Shown here piece after piece: positions 286 through 16,761 of a DNA stretch of 16,953 nt. A program made the position numbers and the translations under genes. Source of the stretch: a virus (lineage: Duplodnaviria; Heunggongvirae; Uroviricota; Caudoviricetes). Under the pieces are notes generated by a model. That model saw only the letters and a program-made list of their open reading frames with translations. It did not search any database and was not told the origin of the DNA. Each line of letters starts with the position of its first letter. Within the stretch, counting starts at the first letter, position 1. The stretch lies in IMG/VR virus record IMGVR_UViG_2529293063_000008. The stretch is one strand, 5' to 3'.

Positions 286-1362
286 TTACTCAAATAACTT
301 TTTCACTTCATCAACTGTCTGAAGATAACGTTCGCTCTCAATCTCAATACCTATTGCCTGACGTCCTAACTTCAGCGCAGCTTTAATAGTTGAGCCTGAT
401 CCCATAAAGAAATCGGCAACGATATCTCCGGGGCGTGAACTACTCTTTATAATATGTTCCATCATCGCTGCAGGTTTTTCACATGGGTGCTTGCCAGGAT
501 AATATTGCACAGGAGGAAACTCCCATACATCGGTATAAGGTACATCAGCAGTAACATGAAATGGACGGCGTAAATTTTCATACTGCACCTTCAAATCATC
601 ATACTGCTTCTTTACTTCCTCATAATGTAATTTCAGATCGCTATAACGCTTTTCATGTTCTGAATAATCAACATTAAAAGGATATGGACACTGGACACCG
701 AGTGAATCTGCCTTCCTGCGAAATAATTCGCATAGTTTATTAAAATCAATTAATGATGGAAGCCGCCACTGCGAATAAGAAAACCAGTGTGAACACATCT
801 GCTTTCCTGTCGCTGAATTAATGTCTGCGGCTGATATATCTAACTGACGGCGAGCCAGCGAAAAAGCATCAATTAGTGGAGAAAAAATATTTTTTCTTAA
901 ATCTGCACATTTTGAAGCATAACCTGACTGACCTTTCGCATAACCTGACGCGCCGTAATGCTCTGCAAATAATATTCTTTCAGTAGCAGGAAAATAAGCC
1001 CTTAAACTTTCTTTATGACAACCGCGCCACATACCACTGGGTTTAGCCCAAATGATATGGTTCAGAACATTGAAACGGTCGCGAGTTAATAATTCAATTT
1101 TTGACGCAAGGCGAGAGCCGGTAAACATATACAGGCTGCCATTAGGGGCCAATATCCGCCAAAATTCTGCCAAAAATTCGTCAATCCACCCCAAAAAGTC
1201 AGCATCGCTATCCCACTGGTTATCCCATGCGTTAGCCTTTACGCCGAAGTATGGTGGGTCTGTTGCAATCAAATTGACCGAGTTATCAGGGATGGTTTTG
1301 ATAAATTGCAGAGAATCTGCGCAAACGAGTTGCGCGCCATGAATATTAGTGGTTTTGAACAT
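286..1362 (-). CDS. DNA methyltransferase, beta-class amino-MTase (N6-adenine or N4-cytosine), orphan (no restriction partner seen)
   Basis: DPPY motif (ATDPPYFG) near the N-terminus and FxGSG motif (FFMGSGSTIKAA) near the C-terminus, i.e. motif IV before motif I. Start taken at ATG 1362 (MFKTTNIHG...); the longest ORF starts at ATG 1407. Confidence 0.8.
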   Translation of the reverse strand: MFKTTNIHGAQLVCADSLQFIKTIPDNSVNLIATDPPYFGVKANAWDNQWDSDADFLGWIDEFLAEFWRILAPNGSLYMFTGSRLASKIELLTRDRFNVLNHIIWAKPSGMWRGCHKESLRAYFPATERILFAEHYGASGYAKGQSGYASKCADLRKNIFSPLIDAFSLARRQLDISAADINSATGKQMCSHWFSYSQWRLPSLIDFNKLCELFRRKADSLGVQCPYPFNVDYSEHEKRYSDLKLHYEEVKKQYDDLKVQYENLRRPFHVTADVPYTDVWEFPPVQYYPGKHPCEKPAAMMEHIIKSSSRPGDIVADFFMGSGSTIKAALKLGRQAIGIEIESERYLQTVDEVKKLFE

Positions 1363-1454
1363 AGCTATTATTTTTTTGCCTGGGTAAGCTAACCCGGCGA
1401 TGCGCATCGCGGGTGGGCTTTAGGTTCAGCCTATAGCTCTGGCATGGGTTGACC

Positions 1455-2257: not shown

Positions 2258-2569
2258 ATGTTTAACGTGATAACCCACCCTGCAGCACTGGATGAACTGC
2301 TTGAACTACCAGATGATTTGCGAGGTCGCATGACCAGATTAATTGAGCGACTGGAGAAAGAAGGCAACAAACTGAAGATGCCCCATAGCCGTGTAATAGG
2401 TGGAGGGCTTTTTGAACTACGAGTAGGGGATAAAAACATCGCAAGAACGCTGTACGCCTACGCGACTGGTAACGAAATTTATCTATTGCATGCATTTGTA
2501 AAAAAGACACAGAAAACACCGGTGAAGGCTATCGAAATCGCCAGAACTCGCCTGAAGGAGATGAACTGA
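2258..2569 (+). CDS. Type II toxin, RelE/HigB-fold, gp49-like family
   Basis: 103 aa, SD GGAGG 7 nt upstream. Sequence ...GGGLFELRVGDKNIARTLYAYATGNEIYLLHAFVKKTQKTP... matches my memory of HigB/gp49-type toxins. Toxin-first order with a 1-nt overlap (TGATG) to a downstream HTH gene. Confidence 0.8.
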   Translation: MFNVITHPAALDELLELPDDLRGRMTRLIERLEKEGNKLKMPHSRVIGGGLFELRVGDKNIARTLYAYATGNEIYLLHAFVKKTQKTPVKAIEIARTRLKEMN

Positions 2570-2856
2570 TGAAAGCGAAAGGCATCCCGTTTAACGAAGT
2601 AAAAGAAAAACTTCTCAACACTCCAGAAGCCATCAAAGGATATGAAGAGGCCGATAAAGAGCTGGAGATGGTCGAAATGTTATACGAAATGAGGGAAAGA
2701 GCAGGTTTAACGAAGTCAGCTCTGGCTGAACGAATGGGATTGCGCCCGTCAGCTATCAGCCGCCTGGAAAGCAATCCTTTAGGGGCAAGCATGAAAACTT
2801 TATCAAAATATGCCCAAGCATGCGGTGCAACGATTAATATTAATGCCGTCTATTGA
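2569..2856 (+). CDS. HTH (XRE-family) antitoxin, HigA-like partner of the gp49-like toxin
   Basis: 95 aa; HTH segment LTKSALAERMGLRPSAISRLE; SD AAGGAG 9 nt upstream; start overlaps the toxin stop. Confidence 0.8.
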   Translation: MKAKGIPFNEVKEKLLNTPEAIKGYEEADKELEMVEMLYEMRERAGLTKSALAERMGLRPSAISRLESNPLGASMKTLSKYAQACGATININAVY

Positions 2857-2899: not shown

Positions 2900-3118
2900 T
2901 CAATGATGTAAACTCTCAACAGCAATAACTTGTTGGCAATTCTGAGCTATCTCCCGCGACATACTAACAAGTCGTGAAATCTCGCCAAGATGCAAGCTGG
3001 CTTCTGGAGAAGCCAGAGCAACGCTAACCAGATCCAAAACGGCGTCGATGTCTTTTAGGTTTGATCCGAGTTCTTCAAGAGTTGATACAGGTGCTTCAGT
3101 CATTGAATCTAATACCAT
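2900..3118 (-). CDS. Hypothetical 72-aa protein, candidate SOS-regulated gene
   Basis: ATG at 3116-3118; promoter region 3119-3187 contains a LexA-box match and an operator-like 17-mer. Protein MVLDSMTEAPVSTLEELGSNLKDIDAVLDLV... is acidic and has no motif I recognise. Confidence 0.5.
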   Translation of the reverse strand: MVLDSMTEAPVSTLEELGSNLKDIDAVLDLVSVALASPEASLHLGEISRLVSMSREIAQNCQQVIAVESLHH

Positions 3119-3142: not shown

Positions 3143-3158
3143 CTGTATAAAATTACAG
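3143..3158. promoter_or_regulatory. LexA (SOS) box CTGT-N8-ACAG
   Basis: TACTGTATAAAATTACAGGG (3141-3160) matches the E. coli SOS-box consensus TACTGTATATATATACAGTA in both CTGT/ACAG arms and the AT-rich centre; 25 nt upstream of the 72-aa gene start. Confidence 0.6.
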
Positions 3159-3168
3159 GGTAAAACTC

Positions 3169-3185
3169 AAATTTTATAGCCAGCT
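3169..3185. promoter_or_regulatory. Distal copy of the repressor-operator-like 17-mer AAATTTTATAGCCAGCT
   Basis: Exact 17-nt identity with 7098-7114 in the cro/repressor intergenic region. Confidence 0.5.
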
Positions 3186-3187
3186 TT

Positions 3188-3342
3188 CAATGGATTAACT
3201 GGTTAAATATCTTTGTAGTCCGATACTTATGTTCCCTTCCTGCGCCTCGCCCAACCACTTCCAAAAGCCCATCACCACCATCAGAAAAGCTCTTTTCGCT
3301 CCGTTTTCGTATCATTTCAAAAAGCAATGCCTTTTTGTCCAT
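3188..3342 (-). CDS. Small hypothetical protein (51 aa), below the ORF-track size cutoff
   Basis: ATG at 3340-3342 with SD GGAGGGG 4-5 nt upstream; translation MDKKALLFEMIRKRSEKSFSDGGDGLLEVVGRGAGREHKYRTTKIFNQLIH; stop at 3188-3190. Confidence 0.3.
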
Positions 3343-5874: not shown

Positions 5875-6177
5875 TTAAATGGCGTTATTTTCATTTTCTT
5901 GTGCGACCGTGGTCGCACCCTCTCTAATTTCCAGATAACGCTTAATCCAAAGATTTTCTATATGCTTATTACCTGGCTGATTTGATAAATACCAATCGGC
6001 AATTACAGACTGCTTATTACTATCGGGTCGTGTCCTGTAACCGCAAGTTGGACACCAGATGACATATTCATTTCTTACCCCCGAATACCTTAATTCTGGC
6101 TTCGACGGTTTCCTGAACATAACTTGTTTACAAAGGCAGAATGGCACTTCCTGCCCGATGGCGTTTGATGATTTCAC
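5875..6177 (-). CDS. Zinc-finger protein, possibly Lar-family restriction-alleviation protein
   Basis: Two Cys pairs (PFCLC ... CPTCGYRTRP) about 27 aa apart, followed by ADWYLSN, in the pattern I recall for Lar-like proteins. Start set at GTG 6177 (SD GGAG) so that both Cys pairs are included; overlaps the upstream gene by about 50 nt. Confidence 0.4.
   Translation of the reverse strand: MKSSNAIGQEVPFCLCKQVMFRKPSKPELRYSGVRNEYVIWCPTCGYRTRPDSNKQSVIADWYLSNQPGNKHIENLWIKRYLEIREGATTVAQENENNAI
5900..5919. repeat. Centromere-like palindrome, copy 2
   Basis: TGTGCGACCGTGGTCGCACC; core identical to 1606-1625 and 8345-8360. Lies inside coding sequence at the junction of two small genes. Confidence 0.5.
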
Positions 6178-6838
6178 TGCGCTTCTCCGCCGCATTTAAT
6201 AATGCGGTTCGATTTAAGCTCAGACATCGCGACTTAATTAAAAGCCAGCGTTCTTTATAATCTTGTCTCCAGCTATCAATAGATATATTCAGTAGAAAAC
6301 TCAGATGCCTGTCCTGTTCTCTCTCATCAACTGCCTCAGCACACGTAAGTTCTGATTTAACCTGCTGTGCCGCGTAATAAATCAATTTCCGCATGGCTTT
6401 TTTCGTGGAGGCCTTCATTTTTTTAAAGCCGCCCCCCGAATGAGCAACCAGAAAATCAAGCCATAACCACTGACAAACAATCACATCATTGTTGTAGTCA
6501 GGCTTGCATCCGTAGCAATAATAAAGCCAGGCTGATTCCTCGTTATTCAACTGACAAATAGCCCTGCGCCAGCTGGCGCTCTGAAAATCAATATCAGTGA
6601 GCAACATTGATGATTGTTTAAATGTTTTCCCCTGGTGGAATCTAACCGGCTCAGCGGGAACGGACACTTCGTATGAGTTATCATCCCCCACACTGATTGA
6701 CCGGACTGGTTTATTGTTAAACCGTCCTGATCTACCGAGACGCATCTGCTCAAGCTGGACCTCCAGAATGCCACGCTGGCGATAATGAACATCAGCCAAT
6801 GCCGTAGAGACGCAGCTGCGTATATACTCAAGCTCCAC
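6128..6838 (-). CDS. Hypothetical regulatory protein immediately downstream of cro (position of a cII- or Q-like early regulator)
   Basis: 236 aa; GTG start at 6838 overlapping the cro-like stop by 11 nt (ATG 6745 is an alternative); Cys-rich segment WLYYCYGCKPDYNNDVIVCQW. Function not assignable by eye. Confidence 0.5.
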   Translation of the reverse strand: MELEYIRSCVSTALADVHYRQRGILEVQLEQMRLGRSGRFNNKPVRSISVGDDNSYEVSVPAEPVRFHQGKTFKQSSMLLTDIDFQSASWRRAICQLNNEESAWLYYCYGCKPDYNNDVIVCQWLWLDFLVAHSGGGFKKMKASTKKAMRKLIYYAAQQVKSELTCAEAVDEREQDRHLSFLLNISIDSWRQDYKERWLLIKSRCLSLNRTALLNAAEKRSEIIKRHRAGSAILPL

Positions 6839-7049
6839 GCTTACGACTCTCCTTAATCGACTGCTTTACCCGCCGAGTTGTAAAGTCACTCTTCAGCTTG
6901 TAAGCAGTACGAACTTCAATATCGCTTTGCCGCAATGAAGGAATCTCTCCAGCGGTTAACCATTGGTAAACAGCTCCGGGTGTTACACCTACCCCTGCCG
7001 CTGCTTTTTCAACACTGCCAAAGTGGCGAATAAGTTCTTCTGGTTTCAT
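6828..7049 (-). CDS. Cro-like HTH regulator
   Basis: Start moved to ATG 7049 (MKPEELIRHFGSVEKAAAGVGVTPGAVYQWL...); HTH motif; divergent from the repressor gene across an operator-containing intergenic region. Confidence 0.65.
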   Translation of the reverse strand: MKPEELIRHFGSVEKAAAGVGVTPGAVYQWLTAGEIPSLRQSDIEVRTAYKLKSDFTTRRVKQSIKESRKRGA

Positions 7050-7080
7050 GTTGTTATTATAAACAATAAACAATAATTAA

Positions 7081-7134
7081 AGCCAGCTATAATAAATAAA
7101 TTTTATAGCCAGCTATAAGAAGATCATTTATGAT
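7081..7134. promoter_or_regulatory. Immunity-switch operator/promoter region with two operator copies
   Basis: AGCCAGCTATAA at 7081-7092 and 7109-7120; the second sits in TATAGC-CA-GCTATA with perfect 6-bp arms (7103-7116). TATGAT (7129-7134) lies 6 nt before the repressor ATG, suggesting a leaderless repressor mRNA. Confidence 0.5.
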
Positions 7135-7140
7135 TACAGT

Positions 7141-7737
7141 ATGAAAACACGAGGCGAACGACTGAAAGCACGCCGTTTAGAGATGAAGCTGACGTTGCGA
7201 GAAGTTGCTGAGGCTGTCGATATCTCTATAGCAGGCGTCCAAAACTTAGAACGTGGCGACGTAATGCCGTCACTGGAGATAGGTATTGCCCTGGCTAAGT
7301 GCTTACGCAAGCCAGTACATTGGGTGCTATATGGGACAGAATATGACCCTGATCGCATTCCTGTTATTGGCACAACTGAAAGTGGGCCTGATGAAGAGTG
7401 GAAGCCGGGACAGGTTCCAAATACTGAGCGATTCCTGCCATTCATCAGCCAGCGCAATACTGTGTATGCGTTAACTATCAGCAATCTTACGCAGGGAAAC
7501 TATCAGCCAGGCGATTTTCTCCTGGTCGATTCTGCGCTGGAACTGGTCCCCGGCGAGGATGTTCTGGTTCGTGATACTGCAGGAAATATCACTATCCAGC
7601 GCCTAGCCCGTTTTGATGATGAAAATTACTATCTGGATGGAACAAACTCACAACGCGCTATCTTCAGGAAAAGCGATCTTGAATTTGTTCACCAAATAGT
7701 CGGAACGATCAAATCATTCATGGTTGAGGGTAGATGA
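7141..7737 (+). CDS. CI-like prophage repressor (N-terminal HTH, C-terminal S24-like domain that appears to lack the catalytic lysine)
   Basis: 198 aa; HTH LTLREVAEAVDISIAGVQNLERG; C-terminal GDFLLVDS...GEDVLVR...ITIQRLAR resembles LexA/CI (GDLLAV...VTVKRL) but has Q where the catalytic K is expected. No Ala-Gly in the linker. Confidence 0.8.
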   Translation: MKTRGERLKARRLEMKLTLREVAEAVDISIAGVQNLERGDVMPSLEIGIALAKCLRKPVHWVLYGTEYDPDRIPVIGTTESGPDEEWKPGQVPNTERFLPFISQRNTVYALTISNLTQGNYQPGDFLLVDSALELVPGEDVLVRDTAGNITIQRLARFDDENYYLDGTNSQRAIFRKSDLEFVHQIVGTIKSFMVEGR

Positions 7738-7839
7738 CTTAATACGGGGTTTATTGTTTGCTGTAAATCTGGTTTAATGCAGGGCATATGTTCTGTGGGT
7801 TGACTCAGGTTACAGCAGCAGAAAAAAGACGAAAAAAAA

Positions 7840-7868
7840 CCCGAGTCGGCAAACTCGGGTCCTTTTCA
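7840..7868 (+). terminator. Intrinsic terminator downstream of the repressor gene
   Basis: CCCGAGT-CGGCAAA-ACTCGGG hairpin followed by TCCTTTTC; preceded by an A8 run, so possibly bidirectional. Confidence 0.55.
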
Positions 7869-7982
7869 GGAAGCAGCCACAGTAACGCGACGGATTCCGT
7901 CAATTCAAGATGCGTTTATTGTGGCTGCTCCTGCGGATTTTTTCAACCCGAAAAAACATAATTCGCATGGAATGGCTAAAAA

Positions 7983-10900
7983 ATGACATTAAACGATTTC
8001 TATGCGGATCGCTTTGGCAGCGATCCGTTCTCGCTAATTGAAGCAGCACGGGATGAACTAACCGAGCTGGCACAGATGGCTGGTATCAACTGGCCTGCCT
8101 GTTCCGACAACATCCAACTCAACCCTCGCGGGGGTGTTGAGCGTTACTCTTCATACAATAAAACATCTCCAGAAGCTCTCGAGAAGAGCCTCAAAGGACG
8201 CGTAGAAATTTACTCCCGGCTGGAACACAGCAAAGGGATTGATTACCCGTTCATTAACTTCGTCCATAAAGGCAGCGATGCTGGCTCATGGAGCGGTTTC
8301 TCCTTCCTGTTTTCTGAATATCGCCGTGAGCAACAACGGAATAATGCGACCGTGGTCGCACAACCGGAAGAAGAACGGGCAAGAATAGAACGTCAGGCCG
8401 AAGCACGTCGTCGCCGTGAAGAACAAAAACGAATTAATGACCTGAAAAACAACCAAATTGACCATGAACGTTTGCTGGGATGGCTGGCATTTCACAGCGC
8501 GTGGGAACATGCTCCTGCAGAAGACGGCTCATGGCCATATGCGATTAAAAAAGGTATTCGTGACGTTTTTAATTCGTGTGATGTGCGTCGCGTGACCAGT
8601 CACGACAGCGCAAAATGGAGCAGGGGGCCAACCACGTATATGGCTATCCCTCTGGCTCACCTGGACGGTCGTTACGATGGTCGTATTGTGGGTTGGCAGC
8701 GAATCGACAAACAAGGTGGAAAATACCAGACCAGCGCAGTAACCAGCGGCGATTTCGTCGGTGCCTGCTTTGTTATCGGTGAGCTGAAAGGGGCGCAAAA
8801 CATCGCTGTTACAGAAGGTTTTGCTACTGGTGCATCCATCTGGCTTGCCACGAAAAAAGATAAACGCTTTGACGCTGTGGTTGTCGCTGTATCCGCTAAC
8901 AACATGGTTCATGTTGTGGAACAACTGGTAAACATGTACCCGGCGGCAAAAATCACCTGCGCACTGGATAATGACCGGAAATCTGCCACAGAAGGAAAAG
9001 GGAATACCGGCCTGCGGACTGGCTATGAAATCTTATCGAAATTCAACGATGTCCGCTGCGTCTATCCAACTTTTGAAGACGATCCGCAAATGGAGTGCAG
9101 TGACTTCAACGACCTGCACAAACTACGTGGACTTCGTGAAACAGCACGTCAACTATTTGCAACAGCAAACCGCCTGAAAACTGGTACTGATTTGCTATCT
9201 CTGACGCTCAACCGCCTGAAGACAATTAAGCGGGATAACCGTCGTACTTTTGCCAAAGAGCTGCTGAGAGCGGTGGATATTGGCATGCTAACCTGTCCGG
9301 TTCCTAACAGTCCGTCAGATTTATTTAACATGTTCTGCATCGTTCTGCGTGAAATGGGACTGGAAAATATCTATCGCGCTACGGTAAAAGACCACATTGC
9401 CCGTCGCCTGAATAAAAAGTGCCGTATTGCCCAGGCTCCGCGCTCTTTCAGCGAACGCATAACTGATCCCAATAAACGCCCTCAACATATCACATATAAG
9501 CGTTTTGAAACTTCGGTAATGACCGATGATGTCCTGAAGTACGTGCAATCACTACAGGGGATAGTCATCGTCCGTGCTGGTATGGGTTCCGGCAAATCTA
9601 CTGGATTGTTACGACCGTTAATGCATAGCTCAGAACGTGGTATCTCTGTTGCTCACCGTGTCTCCCTTATTGGCGGCCTGTGGGAAATGATGACAGAAGG
9701 AAAAGGTGTAAAAGCCGATATCCTGCACTATCAGGATCCTGGCTATCAGGAAATAGCTCCATACGCCAGTAAACTGACCATCTGCATAAACTCGATTGTT
9801 AAAAACTGCTGGCAACCGTTGATGCGCCAGCACGACTATTTTGGCTTTGACGAGGCCACACAAGGGCTACGTGCCGTTCTTTCCGGTCGGGCTATGGAAA
9901 ACCCGGTGGCTGTATTCAATACGCTAATTGACGCGCTGGCCAGAACAGAACAACACCCAATCATGGTGGATGCTGATGCGAATGATCTGCTGGTTGACCT
10001 GGCTGAACTGGCTATGAAACGCCGTGAAGAACTAGGTTTACCGGCATGGCTGCAGATCCACGTAATTGAATTACCTGTTGATGTTCGCAACCGCGAAACA
10101 GGTGAGCCAATCCGGGTTTTTTATACAGAAAAAGATCGCATCATGACCGAGGTGGTGAAAGCTGTATCGGATGGCGAAAAAATCATGTTGGCCACCGACA
10201 GCTCCACCTTTGCAGAAGATGTGACAGCCACCCTGAGAATGCATTTTCCTGGTAAGAAATTTCTGTGTGTAAACCAGAAAAACAAACCAGAGCCAGAAGT
10301 TGAAGCATTTACCAATCAACCGAAAAAGATGGTCAAAAAATACGACGGCCTGATTTATAGCCCGTCTATTTCATCCGGCGTGTCGATTGAGCAAAAACAT
10401 TTTGACCGTCATTTCGGCATGTTCTGTGGTGAAGTTGTACCCAGCGACGCAGTGCAAATGCTACGCCGCGACCGTACAGCAAAAGAATTTATTATCGGCT
10501 TTGATAAAGCTCGTGCAAAACGTGAAACTGACCCGCAAAAAATAGAACGAGCATTCGCCCAGGCATTGCTTGCTACCGCAGGTATGAACGGTGAACTGAC
10601 GGATGTCGTTTTCGATGGCGACCGTATATCAATGGGGGTGGCCAATACCGACTTTACCAGGATGAAAATTAAAGCAGCCGCTATTGAAGCGACTGCGCGT
10701 AACGACTACGCCAGCAACATGATCTGCATCATGCACAGCGACGGTTATAAGGTATCGCCGCTGGCCACCGATTATGCTGCGAATGATATCGGTAAAGAGC
10801 TGCGTAAAGAAGCGCGGGATATTGTGTGGGAACAGACACTGGATCTGCATCTCAATACAGAAACTCCACAAGAATCAGAGCGTGAAGAACTGCTAAAAAA

Positions 10901-11978
10901 ACGCGCGCTGACGCTTGAAGAACAGGCAAAACTTGTCCGCTGGGATATTGAAAACGAACTGAAACTACCGGTTGAAGAAGGCACGCTGAAATTCTATTTC
11001 GATGGTGCTCGAGACAAAGTTCGCCGCTATGAAACAATGCTTTTAGATGAGGTAACAGCTCGTCGTTACGACCGGGAAGAAGCAGCCATCAATTTTACCT
11101 ACGCATACCGTCAGGCGGGACAGTGGCAATATTTTGTAGTGACCGCGATGACTCGCGAGCAGGCTGATGATGTCTTTAAAACTAAATTCCCTGGAATAAT
11201 CGATCACAAGGTAAAAGCTACTCCTACTGTTGAAGTCGGGGCGCGCGGTTTCTATGCGCTTAAATCAGCAACTCTCCGGCAGTACTTTATCGACTGCGGT
11301 ATCAACCCTGAGACTATGACCGGCGAGGCGACTCAGGAGCGTCTCAAATTTGCTCGAGATAACCTCATGACAGCCGAACGCCGTGACCTGTTGAATAACG
11401 TTCTGCACATTGGTGGTTTTATGACGCCAAAAGGGAAGCCTAAAGTGCCGGAAGCGTTGTTTAAAAACATTTGCGACTCTCTTGGCCTTAAAACAGGTAA
11501 ACGTCGCGGCAGAGACGGCGATAAGCGTCCAACCTTGCGTTTTGTTGAGCCTGAATCAGCGGCATTTATGCTGGATATTCTTGCTCAGCGTCAGAAAGAT
11601 GGCCTAACCCTGAAAACGCGTAAAGCCGAGAAGACCGCCATCGAAATGGATCGCGATTTGGATCTCAATATATATATGGATGATAAAACGCGATCCACAA
11701 ACGAGCAGGTTCAAAACGCCCCTCATTCAGTAATTTCTGAGGCTTTGGCTGTGTTGCCAGTGGTTGTACCTGAGTCCTGGGCGATGAGTGCGCTTTCCGG
11801 TGAGGAGCTGGCCACTATGTCATCATGGTCATCAGCCAGCATAGCTATGACGTTTGCATCTCTGTACCTCACAGAGTTCATGGATCACTTATCCAGCAAT
11901 GAACTGCGGCGGTTACGTGAATACATTACCGGGAATAGCCCATGCAGCTACGAAGAGCAGGGCGCTTTCTATGGGTAA
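7983..11978 (+). CDS. repA: Multidomain replication protein: primase (TOPRIM) fused to a P-loop helicase/NTPase, N15 RepA-like
   Basis: 1331 aa; TOPRIM-like IAVTEGFATGASIWLA ... ITCALDND; Walker A VRAGMGSGKST; size matches my memory of N15 RepA. Confidence 0.85.
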   Translation: MTLNDFYADRFGSDPFSLIEAARDELTELAQMAGINWPACSDNIQLNPRGGVERYSSYNKTSPEALEKSLKGRVEIYSRLEHSKGIDYPFINFVHKGSDAGSWSGFSFLFSEYRREQQRNNATVVAQPEEERARIERQAEARRRREEQKRINDLKNNQIDHERLLGWLAFHSAWEHAPAEDGSWPYAIKKGIRDVFNSCDVRRVTSHDSAKWSRGPTTYMAIPLAHLDGRYDGRIVGWQRIDKQGGKYQTSAVTSGDFVGACFVIGELKGAQNIAVTEGFATGASIWLATKKDKRFDAVVVAVSANNMVHVVEQLVNMYPAAKITCALDNDRKSATEGKGNTGLRTGYEILSKFNDVRCVYPTFEDDPQMECSDFNDLHKLRGLRETARQLFATANRLKTGTDLLSLTLNRLKTIKRDNRRTFAKELLRAVDIGMLTCPVPNSPSDLFNMFCIVLREMGLENIYRATVKDHIARRLNKKCRIAQAPRSFSERITDPNKRPQHITYKRFETSVMTDDVLKYVQSLQGIVIVRAGMGSGKSTGLLRPLMHSSERGISVAHRVSLIGGLWEMMTEGKGVKADILHYQDPGYQEIAPYASKLTICINSIVKNCWQPLMRQHDYFGFDEATQGLRAVLSGRAMENPVAVFNTLIDALARTEQHPIMVDADANDLLVDLAELAMKRREELGLPAWLQIHVIELPVDVRNRETGEPIRVFYTEKDRIMTEVVKAVSDGEKIMLATDSSTFAEDVTATLRMHFPGKKFLCVNQKNKPEPEVEAFTNQPKKMVKKYDGLIYSPSISSGVSIEQKHFDRHFGMFCGEVVPSDAVQMLRRDRTAKEFIIGFDKARAKRETDPQKIERAFAQALLATAGMNGELTDVVFDGDRISMGVANTDFTRMKIKAAAIEATARNDYASNMICIMHSDGYKVSPLATDYAANDIGKELRKEARDIVWEQTLDLHLNTETPQESEREELLKKRALTLEEQAKLVRWDIENELKLPVEEGTLKFYFDGARDKVRRYETMLLDEVTARRYDREEAAINFTYAYRQAGQWQYFVVTAMTREQADDVFKTKFPGIIDHKVKATPTVEVGARGFYALKSATLRQYFIDCGINPETMTGEATQERLKFARDNLMTAERRDLLNNVLHIGGFMTPKGKPKVPEALFKNICDSLGLKTGKRRGRDGDKRPTLRFVEPESAAFMLDILAQRQKDGLTLKTRKAEKTAIEMDRDLDLNIYMDDKTRSTNEQVQNAPHSVISEALAVLPVVVPESWAMSALSGEELATMSSWSSASIAMTFASLYLTEFMDHLSSNELRRLREYITGNSPCSYEEQGAFYG
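8345..8360. repeat. Centromere-like palindrome, copy 3 (inside repA coding sequence)
   Basis: TGCGACCGTGGTCGCA exact; encodes ...NATVVAQ... within repA. Confidence 0.5.
8592..8603. repeat. Palindrome GTGACCAGTCAC (copy 2, inside repA)
   Basis: Flanked as CGTGACCAGTCACG; same family as 3353-3364 and 13196-13215. Confidence 0.35.
11648..11696. other. Candidate internal replication origin within the 3' part of repA
   Basis: 8-bp inverted repeat GGATCGCG / CGCGATCC (11648-11655, 11689-11696) flanks the AT-rich TCAATATATATATGGATGATAAAA and includes three GATC sites. I recall the N15 ori mapping inside the 3' part of repA. Confidence 0.3.
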
Positions 11979-13265: not shown

Positions 13266-13378
13266 TACTTCGCTGCGGTAAATCCCGTAGCCGGGACTCT
13301 CAACCCCGAAATCCGAACGACGCACAACACGCGCCAGCGTGTTTTTTTGTGTGTATGAGCCTGCGCATATCCGAATTA

Positions 13379-13460
13379 TGGTGGCTCAGGTGGGGCAGCC
13401 GAAAGGCTGGCCGGTGTCGTTTGGGCCGGTGTTGAGAACCCCGCTTGGGCTACCACCCCA
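13379..13460 (+). ncRNA. Candidate c4-type antisense RNA (P1 c4 / N15 CA RNA analogue); boundaries approximate
   Basis: About 80-nt GC-rich segment closed by GGTGG (13380-13384) / CCACC (13453-13457) with internal hairpins. Loop GGTGTTGAGAACCCC (13428-13442) is complementary to ACTCTCAACCCC (13296-13307) and ATTCTCAACTC (13466-13476), which flank it upstream of the icd-like start. Confidence 0.4.
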
Positions 13461-13679: not shown

Positions 13680-13909
13680 ATCAGGTAAAAATGAACACTG
13701 TTGGCCTGCTGGAATCGTTGGATGAACGTCTGGCTCAGGTCTATGCGCTTGTGTCATCCGCCCATCGTACAGTCTCCAGCTGTGAGGCGTCGATTTATCT
13801 CTCAGAAGCCGGGAAGCTCCTTCAAATTGCGTGTGAGTTGACACACAAAGCACAGGGGTATTCAGCATCTCTCTCGTCGCAATTGCAGCACAATAAGGAG
13901 GCCAAATGA
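13676..13909 (+). CDS. Hypothetical protein (77 aa), translationally coupled middle gene of the antirepressor operon
   Basis: SD GAGGTGG 6 nt upstream; ATGA overlaps at both ends. Confidence 0.55.
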   Translation: MNQVKMNTVGLLESLDERLAQVYALVSSAHRTVSSCEASIYLSEAGKLLQIACELTHKAQGYSASLSSQLQHNKEAK

Positions 13910-14688
13910 GCGCGTTAGCTGTATTTTCGTTTCAGGAAGAGCATCAGGTTCGTGTAGTGATGATTAACGGCGATCCGTGGTTTGTAGCGGCTGATGTTTG
14001 TAATGCCATCGGGATTATCAATCATCGTGATGCTGTTGGTAAGTTGGATGAAGACGAAAAGGGGGTCGGTTCAACAGACACCCTTGGAGGTAAACAGGGA
14101 GTGACAATTATTAACGAATCCGGCCTCTATACCCTAATCCTCCGCTGCCGTGACGCGGTGAAGCAAGGCACAACAGCTTGGCGGTTTCGCAAATGGGTAA
14201 CGAACGAAGTCTTGCCCTCTATTCGCAAAAATGGAGAGTACGTTTACGTCGAGCCAGAGCCAATGCGAGCAGCAGAGCCGTTGAACTGGAGGCAGAAAGA
14301 GTATCTGCGAGGGCTGATTAACGATATTGCACAAAGTTTTCAATACCGAAATGCCTGGATTAGCGGTGTATGGTTGGCTTTGCGTCGGGCGTGTCGTAAT
14401 CCATCCCCGAACCCCATAACTGTTGATGATTTGCCAGCAATTACGGCAGAACTGCGCCGGATTTTGACGGCTGCTGAGTCGGCATTGGGGAACATGCGCA
14501 CGTATGAACGAGAGTTGTTGCGTGATGTTGTTCGTGGTGGTAGGCGGAGTATGTCGTGTGGTGATTTGCCCATCACCGATATCAACTCTGATCTGGAAAA
14601 GGCGTTACCCGCGCATTTTGAACTGGCAGTTCAAAAACTTGAGCAGTTATCCGCGCAGCTAAAGCCAGCAGAAATCACCAATAAATAG
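13906..14688 (+). CDS. Phage antirepressor with N-terminal Bro-N/AntA-type domain
   Basis: 260 aa; SD AAGGAGG; N-terminal FSFQEEHQVRVVMINGDPWFVAADVCNAIGIINHRDAVGKLDEDEKG...IINESGLYTLILRCR...KWVTNEVLPSIRKNGEY matches the antirepressor signature as I remember it. Confidence 0.8.
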   Translation: MSALAVFSFQEEHQVRVVMINGDPWFVAADVCNAIGIINHRDAVGKLDEDEKGVGSTDTLGGKQGVTIINESGLYTLILRCRDAVKQGTTAWRFRKWVTNEVLPSIRKNGEYVYVEPEPMRAAEPLNWRQKEYLRGLINDIAQSFQYRNAWISGVWLALRRACRNPSPNPITVDDLPAITAELRRILTAAESALGNMRTYERELLRDVVRGGRRSMSCGDLPITDINSDLEKALPAHFELAVQKLEQLSAQLKPAEITNK

Positions 14689-14859: not shown

Positions 14860-16761
14860 TTAACCGAAATATGTCAGCCATGCTAACTGCATTGCTGACA
14901 TGGGGCTGTTTGCACTGCCGGACCACGCATAATTCTGGCCATTATAATGAAACTCAACAACGTATGAGCCATCACCAATATTTCTCACCGGCTTAAATAC
15001 CGGCTTAGATACAGGCGAAGAAGGTGCAGGCGGTTGCTGTTCTTCTACGCTCTCTTCCTCTTCCTCTTCCTCTTCCTCTATCTCAATTTCGTCGTCATCC
15101 AGATCGTCATCCTCTGACAATTCATCCGCCAGTTCAGGTATTGCTTCCAGTTCTTCTTCGTCAGGCATAACGATTTCTGGAGTATCTATTTTCAGTTGCC
15201 ATTGTCCGTTTTCGCCAACAAATTGCCCCAGAGCATCAGCAGCAAATTCCAGGTATCGACTAATCATTGTTGGGCTAAATTTGAACGCTCTTAGAGTGCT
15301 GTTCGTGATTTTTATAGAGGGGTCCTGCTCTACCAGCTGCTTAACTGTGTTATGCAGACGAACCCCGGCATCTCCTCTGGCGAATCCAGGCATTTCGTCA
15401 TCAAGCTGCTGCAATGCTTCCAGCCTGGTATTTTCGTTTCCAGTATTTGGCCTCCATGTCTTTGAGAAGTTGGCCAGCTTGAATTGCTTATAGTGTAATT
15501 GAGTGTTTTCATCGTCATGGCCTAAAATTTCCATAAAGAAAACATCTTCATCTACGTTTTTCCAACGAGGATCTACGCGGAAAAACATTTCATACGCAAT
15601 ACGGGCATAAATAGCACGACTATCTTTATAAACACGGCGGTCATCTTTGAAAAATGATTTAACCCACGGGTTAAAAGCCTTTGCTAATATGGCATTAATA
15701 CGTCCGTTTTCAGAGCGTGTGTCGTTATCTCCATAACCTTTAACGACATCATCAAAATCAGATGCTGCTGGGCATGAGCGAAGTACATTTATTAAATAAA
15801 CAAATGTTTTTGCTTCGCATAATGTATATATTTTTCTGGTTATATCATCAGAAGTTCTTTTTTTAGCTTGGCCTAAAAAATCAACGGTATACTTACCAGA
15901 AACAGTAAATGTACCTTGATACATAATCTCAATCATTCGTCTTCCTGACAATGCAGCAAGTGCAAATGCCAAAGGAGCCATACCTGAACGAGTGTTTAGA
16001 TTATTTAATGTAGCAGGGCTATTTATAATATCGTAAATAGCTTGCATATATTTAGGGTAATCAATGACCACCACGTTACGTTTCTTATTGTGCAGAACGT
16101 CCGCCCATCGTTGCTGGATAGATGCACGTTCGGCAGGGCTTAGTTGAAGATGATAGAGAATCTCATGGTTAACTTTTAGCTGATTCAACTCCTCAAGTAA
16201 GGCAGATCCTTGCTGTAGTAATTTATATAAATAATCGCGCTTATCTTTCCAGTTATCGCTAGTTAAATCAGAAATGGCGAATTGCCACTCTTTATATTTA
16301 TTTGATAATTTCAATAACTTATTATGACTTTTGTTATCGCCAATTCTGATATTAGATAAATCTTCTGATAGAGGGAGAATTAATTTTAATTTTGCCTGTA
16401 AAGCTGACATTCTCTGGCGAATATCGGCAGCAGGTAGAGAAAGCCATGACAATAGCTCCTCATTATATAAAGGATACTTTTCAGATAGGCGATGTATATT
16501 TTTTTCAAAGCTATGATGAAGTTTATCATCAAACCGTTTTCTGGCCCTGCTCATATAGGCATTGAATGTGTTGGCTGTAATTCTTTTTTCTAATCCTTTC
16601 CCCCTAAACTTTCGCTTGTCATTAAATAATGCATTTTTAAATTTTAATGCAACAGCCTTTATTTTTTTTGTTTTCTCCCCTTGAGGACGGTCAGAGTTAT
16701 CTATTGACTCAACATCGCTAACAAGTGAGTTTATTAATTCACCGATTTTTACTTTGCTCAT
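14860..16761 (-). CDS. telN: Protelomerase (telomere resolvase), TelN-like
   Basis: 633 aa; N-terminus MSKVKIGELIN..., length and an acidic Glu/Asp-rich stretch before the C-terminus match my memory of N15 TelN. SD AGGAGAGG. The gene abuts the terminal half-palindrome. Confidence 0.8.
   Translation of the reverse strand: MSKVKIGELINSLVSDVESIDNSDRPQGEKTKKIKAVALKFKNALFNDKRKFRGKGLEKRITANTFNAYMSRARKRFDDKLHHSFEKNIHRLSEKYPLYNEELLSWLSLPAADIRQRMSALQAKLKLILPLSEDLSNIRIGDNKSHNKLLKLSNKYKEWQFAISDLTSDNWKDKRDYLYKLLQQGSALLEELNQLKVNHEILYHLQLSPAERASIQQRWADVLHNKKRNVVVIDYPKYMQAIYDIINSPATLNNLNTRSGMAPLAFALAALSGRRMIEIMYQGTFTVSGKYTVDFLGQAKKRTSDDITRKIYTLCEAKTFVYLINVLRSCPAASDFDDVVKGYGDNDTRSENGRINAILAKAFNPWVKSFFKDDRRVYKDSRAIYARIAYEMFFRVDPRWKNVDEDVFFMEILGHDDENTQLHYKQFKLANFSKTWRPNTGNENTRLEALQQLDDEMPGFARGDAGVRLHNTVKQLVEQDPSIKITNSTLRAFKFSPTMISRYLEFAADALGQFVGENGQWQLKIDTPEIVMPDEEELEAIPELADELSEDDDLDDDEIEIEEEEEEEEESVEEQQPPAPSSPVSKPVFKPVRNIGDGSYVVEFHYNGQNYAWSGSANSPMSAMQLAWLTYFG

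Follow-up and report, generated by a model that had tools for sequence, protein, structure and literature searches.

An N15-type immunity switch in an Escherichia coli phage-plasmid, with three operators and promoters predicted to give leaderless cB and cro mRNAs

Short palindromic repeats that lie between a repressor gene and a divergently oriented cro-like gene raise two questions: whether the repeats are the operators of an immunity switch, and where the transcripts of the two genes begin when a -10-like hexamer stands only a few nucleotides before each start codon. We addressed both questions for positions 7050-7140 of the window, by which we mean the whole stretch of phage DNA that was analysed (16,953 nucleotides). 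An earlier interpretation, made from the letters of this DNA alone (hereafter, the sequence-only reading), had proposed an immunity switch here. That proposal is upheld, in that the sites are orthologous to OR2 and OR3 of the telomere phages N15 and phiKO2 and lie between the cro and CB genes. Judged by sequence, the repeats make up the repressor/Cro operator set already known from N15-type immB regions, and reading them as a switch is correct. The window holds a further, unexceptional example of a switch that was already known, and finding it is a rediscovery.

The repeated element is the 12-mer AGCCAGCTATAA, which occurs in the window in exactly two copies, at 7081-7092 and 7107-7118; the second copy had been placed at 7109-7120, a slip of 2 nt. 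At one mismatch or fewer, 0.10 occurrences of this 12-mer are expected, and two or more matches were found in none of 200 shuffles. The second copy was also described as part of a 14-bp site with perfect 6-bp inverted arms, and this site is indeed present as TATAGCCAGCTATA at 7104-7117. Its symmetry extends further, to 7-bp arms (TTATAGC and GCTATAA) that flank the central CA in a 16-mer at 7103-7118. Matches to the 14-mer pattern at three mismatches or fewer number 6, compared with 1.12 expected, and a count of 6 was likewise reached in 0 of 200 shuffles.

The element that carries these repeats is an N15-like telomere phage-plasmid, i.e., a linear plasmid-prophage. Comparison of the DNA from 6000 to 8000 gives 99% identity to Escherichia phage YDC107_1 and 97% to PhiR46_1, and the Q-cro-cB-repA DNA is about 75% identical to that of N15 and phiKO2. 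We found a protelomerase gene and, beside cB, a RepA primase-helicase gene, and the element exists as an extrachromosomal plasmid. Specifically, it is present in the complete genomes of 18 E. coli strains, invariably on plasmids of about 46 kb, and all 21 E. coli matches are plasmid-borne, with none on a chromosome. The lineage circulates in E. coli of humans, poultry, and pets. The genes run in the same order as in N15 (Q, cro, cB, repA, protelomerase), with Q and cro arranged as N15 genes 39-40:

6128..6838, minus strand: Q-like antiterminator gene (Phage_antiter_Q, E=2.7e-84), 3' of cro and in one operon with it
6828..7049, minus strand: cro gene, 73 aa from ATG 7049 (P22_Cro Pfam, E=1.7e-22)
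7141..7737, plus strand: cB prophage repressor gene, 198 aa (78% identity to N15 CB)
7983..11978, plus strand: repA replication gene encoding a 1331-aa RepA (annotated as primase or CyRepA1 family in matching records)
14860-16761, minus strand: protelomerase gene (domain matches to TelK/ResT)

The divergent neighbours of the repeats are a CB-type repressor and an N15-type Cro, as the immB family requires. CB contains an HTH_3 domain and a partial, sub-threshold match to an S24-like (Peptidase_S24) C-terminal domain; the catalytic Ser and Lys are absent from N15 and phiKO2 CB according to PMC4997575. The window Cro matches the N15 Cro structures 2HIN and 6ON0 with E=2.2e-32, and the recognition-helix residues PGAVYQW are the same in both phages. 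RepA has domain matches to Toprim and to origin-binding protein. When viral contigs were searched with CB, only near-identical relatives were returned, and the search of genome contigs gave two matches, both irrelevant Firmicutes HTH proteins. The diverse relatives used for comparison below were taken from tblastn against phage and plasmid records; Klebsiella phage Kpn74 was left out, its record appearing rearranged and over-called.

As the N15 reference we used GenBank U45242 (immB), which annotates OR1-OR3 between cro and cB and OL2 and OL1 after cB. The window has a counterpart to each of the OR sites and a probable counterpart to each of the OL sites, all of them unstranded:

7054..7069: OR1, TTATTATAAACAATAA, with one mismatch to N15 OR1 TTATTATAATCAATAA; covers the cro -10 box
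7077..7092: OR2, TTAAAGCCAGCTATAA, orthologous to N15 OR2 TTAAAGCTAGGTATAA and phiKO2 OR2 TTAAAGCCAGGTATAA
7103..7118: OR3, TTATAGCCAGCTATAA, with 7-bp arms that match perfectly on either side of CA; N15 and phiKO2 OR3 have the same sequence
7751..7766: probable OL2, TTATTGTTTGCTGTAA, which aligns with N15 OL2 TTATTGCTGACTATAA; overlaps the -35 box of the repA promoter
7774..7789: probable OL1, TTAATGCAGGGCATAT, which aligns with N15 OL1 TTAATCCGATCTATAC and phiKO2 TTAATGCGGTCTATAA; overlaps the -10 box of the repA promoter

The two copies noticed by the sequence-only reading are OR2 and OR3, but OR1 and the two OL sites had been overlooked. The OR sites start at 7054, 7077, and 7103 in the window and at 1845, 1868, and 1894 in U45242, with centre-to-centre distances of 23 bp (OR1-OR2) and 26 bp (OR2-OR3), both as in N15. 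In addition, OR1 keeps the same position relative to the cro ATG across the alignment of relatives. All three OR sites are 16 bp long and two-fold symmetric, and they carry the T-A-N10-T-A end motif of CB operators (PMC4997575), for which the general form is TTATA-N6-TATAA. Promoter hexamers lie within each of them: the cro -10 in OR1, the cro -35 in OR2, and the cB -35 in OR3. The sequence identity and orthology of these sites are established for the window itself. Since OR2 differs from OR3 by only one base in the window (three in N15 and two in phiKO2), the 12-mer is repeated exactly here, and this exact repeat is a peculiarity of the window's clade.

Both candidate OL sites keep T-A-N10-T-A, and their centres have diverged, by more from the N15 and phiKO2 sites than those differ from each other. 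Neither candidate comes within three mismatches of the OR3 16-mer, whereas N15 and phiKO2 OL2 have only two. Because the OL sites have diverged more, binding of CB to them in the window is less certain. A scan of the OR region found no intrinsic terminators and no Rfam families.

Published work on N15 and phiKO2 indicates how such sites are used. As cited in PMC4488713 and PMC4997575, all five N15 sites were footprinted with N15 CB. The CB protein of phiKO2 binds OR1-3 and OL1-2 as well as the operators of N15, with OR1 as its strongest site, and operator half-sites by themselves are left unbound (PMC4997575). The Cro protein of phiKO2 binds OR3 only; the presence of cB blocks cro transcription, and that of cro blocks cB transcription as long as OR3 is not mutated (PMC4997575). 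The KD,app of N15 Cro for OR3 is 90 nM; this protein leaves OR1 and OR2 unbound up to about 1 uM, and has been co-crystallized with a symmetric consensus site (6ON0; PMC6649833). Looping between OL and OR by phiKO2 CB has been observed in vivo (PMC8053113). In both N15 and phiKO2, repA transcription is set by CB at OL.

Overall, the best explanation of the locus, and one that we hold with high confidence, is a three-operator N15-type switch placed between divergent cro-Q and cB-repA genes. What we say about binding, repression, and start sites in the window phage is carried over by analogy from N15, phiKO2, and PY54. In the lysogen, CB dimers would fill OR1-OR3 and silence the cro/Q promoters, both hexamers of which fall within operator sequence. 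CB bound at OL (two sites, 7751-7789), which covers the repA promoter, would set the plasmid copy number, and OL and OR would probably be looped together. Upon DNA damage, LexA cleavage would allow the AntC homologue (2900-3118) to inactivate CB, after which cro would be transcribed. Cro would then occupy OR3 only, covering the -35 box of the cB promoter, so that repressor synthesis is turned off and Cro does not repress itself. Both switch genes would be translated from 5'-terminal AUGs.

The last of these steps depends on where transcription begins, for which the predicted promoters are as follows:

7106..7134, plus strand: predicted PRM-like cB promoter, with -35 TAGCCA (7106-7111) in OR3, a 17-nt spacer, and -10 TATGAT (7129-7134)
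7056..7085, minus strand: predicted cro/Q promoter (PR2 of N15), with -35 TGGCTT (7085 to 7080) in OR2, an 18-nt spacer, and -10 TATAAT (7061 to 7056) in OR1

The spacings given by the sequence-only reading are as it stated: TATGAT precedes the repressor ATG at 7141 by 6 nt, and TATAAT, on the minus strand, precedes the cro-like ATG at 7049 by 6 nt. Since a -10 hexamer lies 6 nt before each ATG, transcription is predicted (by consensus count) to start on the A of ATG 7141 for cB and on the A of ATG 7049 for cro. The combination of TAGCCA, 17 nt, and TATGAT was the sole site to pass the promoter scan, and it was also the best plus-strand candidate by consensus count. U45242 annotates the same -35 and -10 hexamers for cB, and the equivalent cro hexamers are those of PR2. 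The -35 boxes are weak for both genes, with 4/6 consensus matches in TAGCCA and 2/6 in TGGCTT. This geometry is established for the window, and so is the lack of a Shine-Dalgarno (SD) sequence before cB and before cro, as judged by anti-SD duplex energy: the duplex dG is +0.4 kcal/mol for cB and +1.5 kcal/mol for cro, and most genes nearby have values of -7 to -12 kcal/mol.

The same arrangement recurs in the relatives. OR3, 10 nt, TATGAT, 6 or 7 nt, and ATG follow one another in all relatives examined, including PY54, and in each of these, as in the window, (T/C)ATAAT stands 6-7 nt ahead of the cro ATG. ATG is the start codon of both cB and cro throughout, and the 6-7 nt that separate the -10 box from it vary freely. 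For PY54, PMC4488713 reports that RACE detected one leaderless mRNA species each for cI and cro and that the leaderless cro mRNA comes from the CATAAT promoter; the cI end, as described there, may correspond to either of two in-frame AUGs.

Altogether, these observations suggest that leaderless mRNAs most likely supply at least part of the cB and cro products, and we think it rather probable that the leaderless promoter is real. The earlier proposal that both transcripts may start at or next to the start codon is plausible. Promoter geometry, SD absence, conserved spacing, and the PY54 RACE results speak for it, but the cB promoters of phiKO2 lie upstream of OR3. Specifically, luciferase assays of phiKO2 found moderate cB promoter activity in two fragments, P1 (by the cro ATG) and P2 (at the border of OR3), each located upstream of OR3 (PMC4997575), and promoters in these positions would give leadered mRNAs.

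One could therefore suppose that cB is transcribed mainly from the equivalents of P1 and P2, with leaders of about 40-60 nt, in which case the operators would be real and TATGAT would be no working -10 box. We regard this as a possible but somewhat unlikely account. It would have translation begin at an upstream ATG, which is in frame in N15, and the window contains this ATG as part of a short frame:

7130..7144, plus strand: upstream ATG inside TATGAT, frame ATG ATT ACA GTA TGA; four codons, with its end overlapping the cB ATG

In the window's clade, ATG 7141 would then be reached by re-initiation after this frame, the TGA of which overlaps the cB ATG. The activity of phiKO2 P1 and P2 and their repression by Cro at OR3 fit this account, as does a perfect TATAAT at 7088-7093 on the plus strand, with a predicted start near 7100; however, the upstream -35 boxes match TTGACA at just 1-2 of 6 positions. 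A weak purine run, AAGAAG, is suitably spaced before the upstream ATG (anti-SD dG of -2.4), but it is not conserved, and phiKO2 and others read ACAGATC instead. The upstream ATG itself bears on both sides of the argument. Four other lineages (N15, phiKO2, PY54, and a Salmonella plasmid) have it in frame, and there it is the annotated start, yet throughout the window's clade it is out of frame, in two different sequence variants; its spacing is 11 nt in this clade and 12 nt in N15, phiKO2, and PY54. Since the upstream ATG is out of frame across the whole clade, the SD-less ATG 7141 must be the cB start there. Furthermore, the four codons added by the upstream start vary freely (MIKG, MINR, MINS, MIST) beside an invariant MKTRGE, and the RACE results for PY54 gave leaderless ends only. 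Upstream promoters also need not displace the leaderless one, given that both kinds of transcript may coexist. We conclude that leadered and leaderless cB transcripts probably do coexist, like those from PRE and PRM in lambda.

A further copy of the repeat had been placed 3.9 kb away, at 3169-3185. The match is real, since these 17 nt (AAATTTTATAGCCAGCT) are exactly those of 7098-7114, but an operator role for it is improbable, and the site is not conserved. Its surroundings are as follows:

3174..3189, unstranded: distant OR3-like site, TTATAGCCAGCTTTCA, a 16-mer with two mismatches to OR3, formed by one perfect and one degenerate half-site
minus strand: antC-like promoter, with -35 TTGAGT, 17 nt, and -10 TACAGT, containing a LexA box
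3143-3158: LexA box, CTGTATAAAATTACAG, within the antC-like promoter
2900-3118: ORF of the AntC homologue, 72 aa, with 57% identity to the ORF that follows the equivalent LexA box in N15

The ORF at 2900-3118 is very probably antC, the LexA-controlled antirepressor gene; that a LexA-controlled AntC antirepressor induces N15 is cited in PMC3121763. The OR3-like site sits 3 nt upstream of the -35 box of this LexA-controlled promoter. Nine clade relatives read TTATAGCCAACTTTCA at the site, which adds one further mismatch. PhiR46_1 has a 99.5% identical CB and identical OR2 and OR3, yet its sequence at the position of 3174-3189 is unrelated. Of 11 E. coli plasmids, just one shows identity across 76 nt here, and nothing similar was found in N15 and phiKO2. 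Phages that share the repressor do not share the site, which is therefore unlikely to be an operator. We rejected a conserved third operator at 3174-3189 on the evidence of the relatives, PhiR46_1, and the E. coli plasmids, and the site is probably a chance or isolate-specific resemblance.

It is very unlikely, in our view, that 3174-3189 is nevertheless a genuine extra operator through which CB, jointly with LexA, senses or controls the promoter that drives its antirepressor. The exact 17-nt identity with OR3 and its flank, for which the rough chance expectation is about 0.02 in such a window, and the location 3 nt from a -35 box would invite such a role. Against it, in addition to the lack of conservation in all of the comparisons above, the degenerate half-site is without the outer T-A common to all CB operators, and half-sites alone are not bound (PMC4997575). 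Moreover, the site is centred at about -46, from where a bound protein would not obviously occlude RNA polymerase. As for the OR repeats, the notion that they are chance similarities in AT-rich intergenic DNA, where short AT-rich words recur readily, and have no regulatory role was rejected as having next to no probability, since the shuffles did not reproduce the repeat counts, the sites hold their position and sequence among phages that are only about 75% identical overall, and CB and Cro bind identical sequences experimentally.

N15 is among the closest known systems. The immB region of N15 was reportedly described by Lobocka et al. in 1996. Its records (U45242 and AF064539) have the same gene order, the same three 16-bp operators and spacing, and the same -35 and -10 hexamers as the window; OR3 is identical, OR1 is one base off, the OL sites align, and the repA leader/terminator region aligns as well. 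N15 differs from the window in having 7 nt rather than 6 nt from the -10 box to the ATG on both sides, in an annotated cB start ATG whose counterpart is out of frame in the window, and in the centres of OL1 and OL2. In phiKO2 (Hammerl et al. 2016, PMC4997575), OR3 is identical to that of the window and OR2 is one base away. By homology to phiKO2, the window would have CB on all OR and OL sites, Cro on OR3 only, and promoters that overlap the operators; in phiKO2 itself the promoters were assayed on reporter fragments, which put P1 and P2 for cB upstream of OR3.

PY54 is a more distant relative, with a repressor only about 34% identical to the window CB. Before its repressor gene, it has the OR3 core TATAGCCAGCTATA, 10 nt, TATGAT, 7 nt, and ATG, like the window, and CATAAT lies 6 nt before its cro ATG, where the window has TATAAT, also at 6 nt (Hammerl et al. 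2015, PMC4488713). The leaderless cI and cro mRNAs mapped there by RACE are what the sequence-only reading had proposed for the window. Unlike the window, PY54 has a single OR3-type operator, with G...C as its outer bases, and an additional ORF42 between cro and Q.

As in the window, the repressor and cro genes of phage lambda diverge from a stretch with three operators, and OL lies beyond the repressor gene; lambda also shares with N15-type switches a Cro that prefers OR3 and repressor-mediated OL-OR looping. The lambda cI mRNA made from PRM is leaderless and starts at the AUG of the gene. PMC4488713 and PMC6649833 cite this start of the lambda repressor mRNA at the AUG. The two systems differ in several other respects. 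The lambda sites are 17 bp long, whereas those of the window are 16 bp long, with the symmetry axis between base pairs. The window Cro would have an all-alpha P22-Cro-type fold, bind OR3 only, and probably not regulate itself. By analogy with its relatives, CB is said to be without self-cleavage residues and would be inactivated upon induction by a LexA-controlled antirepressor. OL controls the N operon in lambda and would control plasmid replication (repA) in the window. The cro gene of the window is predicted to be leaderless too, which sets it apart from lambda. Activation from OR2 in the manner of lambda, which occurs from position -42, was rejected for the window, where the centres of OR2 and OR3 lie at about -56 and -30 from the predicted cB start.

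The discovery value of the locus is small. For N15 and phiKO2, publications already cover the switch, the operators with their binding proteins, and a co-crystal, and leaderless repressor and cro mRNAs have been published for PY54. The departures from the known kind are clade-level details, namely an OR2 close to OR3, a -10-to-ATG distance that is 1 nt shorter, and an upstream ATG that is out of frame. We think it improbable, though worth stating, that these details make the switch of the window's E. coli clade wired slightly unlike that of N15. If they did, cB translation would hinge wholly on a leaderless or re-initiating AUG, the in-frame upstream AUG having been lost. With OR2 one base from OR3, Cro might also occupy a second site and thereby repress the cro promoter, in contrast to the Cro of N15 and phiKO2, and, in this isolate, CB or Cro might reach the antirepressor gene through the OR3-like site by the antC promoter.

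What is gained is a correct annotation of the immunity region for a circulating E. coli phage-plasmid lineage. In addition, the natural frameshift of this clade argues for the conserved SD-less ATG (MKTRGE...) as the true cB start, whereas the start annotated in N15 and phiKO2 is the upstream ATG. Finally, the near identity of OR2 and OR3 in the window can serve as a simple natural test of what makes N15-type Cro pass over OR2.

Two of the operators between the divergent cro and cB genes, OR2 and OR3 (7077-7118), differ from each other at only one base in the E. coli N15-like phage-plasmids of the window's clade, as opposed to three bases in N15 and two in phiKO2. No binding of N15 Cro to N15 OR2 was observed (PMC6649833). 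Since OR2 in the window is nearly identical to OR3, and its right half-site is the same as that of OR3, the operator sequences suggest that Cro might bind OR2 more strongly here than in N15.

On the minus strand, a LexA box is placed within a promoter in front of a short ORF:

3187-3342, minus strand, homologue of N15 gene 47, immediately upstream of the antC-like promoter
3170-3165 (-35, TTGAGT) and 3147-3142 (-10, TACAGT), minus strand, promoter around the LexA box
3143-3158, minus strand, LexA box CTGTATAAAATTACAG
2900-3118, minus strand, 72-aa ORF downstream of this promoter

The 72-aa product shares 57% identity with that of an unannotated N15 ORF located behind the same LexA box. The ORF in the window is probably antC, the SOS-controlled antirepressor gene; its start codon lacks a Shine-Dalgarno sequence (anti-SD dG +1.9). 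The neighboring gene 47 homologue encodes 51 aa, compared with 73 aa in N15, and appears to carry an internal deletion.

The leader of the replication gene repA (7800-7980), which contains a bidirectional terminator hairpin, AAAAAAAACCCGAGTCGGCAAACTCGGG, is almost unchanged among N15, phiKO2, and the window's clade, and is far more conserved than the adjoining OL operators. The leader also takes in the stretch that the N15 annotation marks as an antisense (inc) RNA promoter.

Overlapping the 5' half of the repressor gene cB is a further reading frame:

7134-7484, minus strand, 116-aa antisense ORF

Its equivalent in the N15 immB record (U45242) is annotated as "unknown," with a putative RBS, and PY54 has ORF40 at the matching position. 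Codon usage may have produced this ORF incidentally, or it may be an overlapping gene that is conserved.

Farther along, three adjacent features look like an N15-type secondary immunity locus (immA, CA-RNA-controlled anti-immunity):

13272-13347, plus strand, isrK (Rfam hit, 54.9 bits)
13374-13460, plus strand, C4 antisense RNA (Rfam hit, 71.8 bits)
13906-14688, plus strand, Bro-N domain protein, following both RNAs

The window also carries the following annotated genes:

286-1407, minus strand, N6/N4 DNA methylase
2258-2856, plus strand, Gp49/HTH (RelE/ParE-type) toxin-antitoxin pair
14860-16761, minus strand, protelomerase TelN/TelK

We note that, in the record of Klebsiella phage Kpn74 (OQ790078), repA is present twice, marked "repeat_region," cro/Q follow cB and share its strand, and tiny ORF calls are numerous; this layout is probably an artifact of assembly or annotation rather than a real rearrangement.
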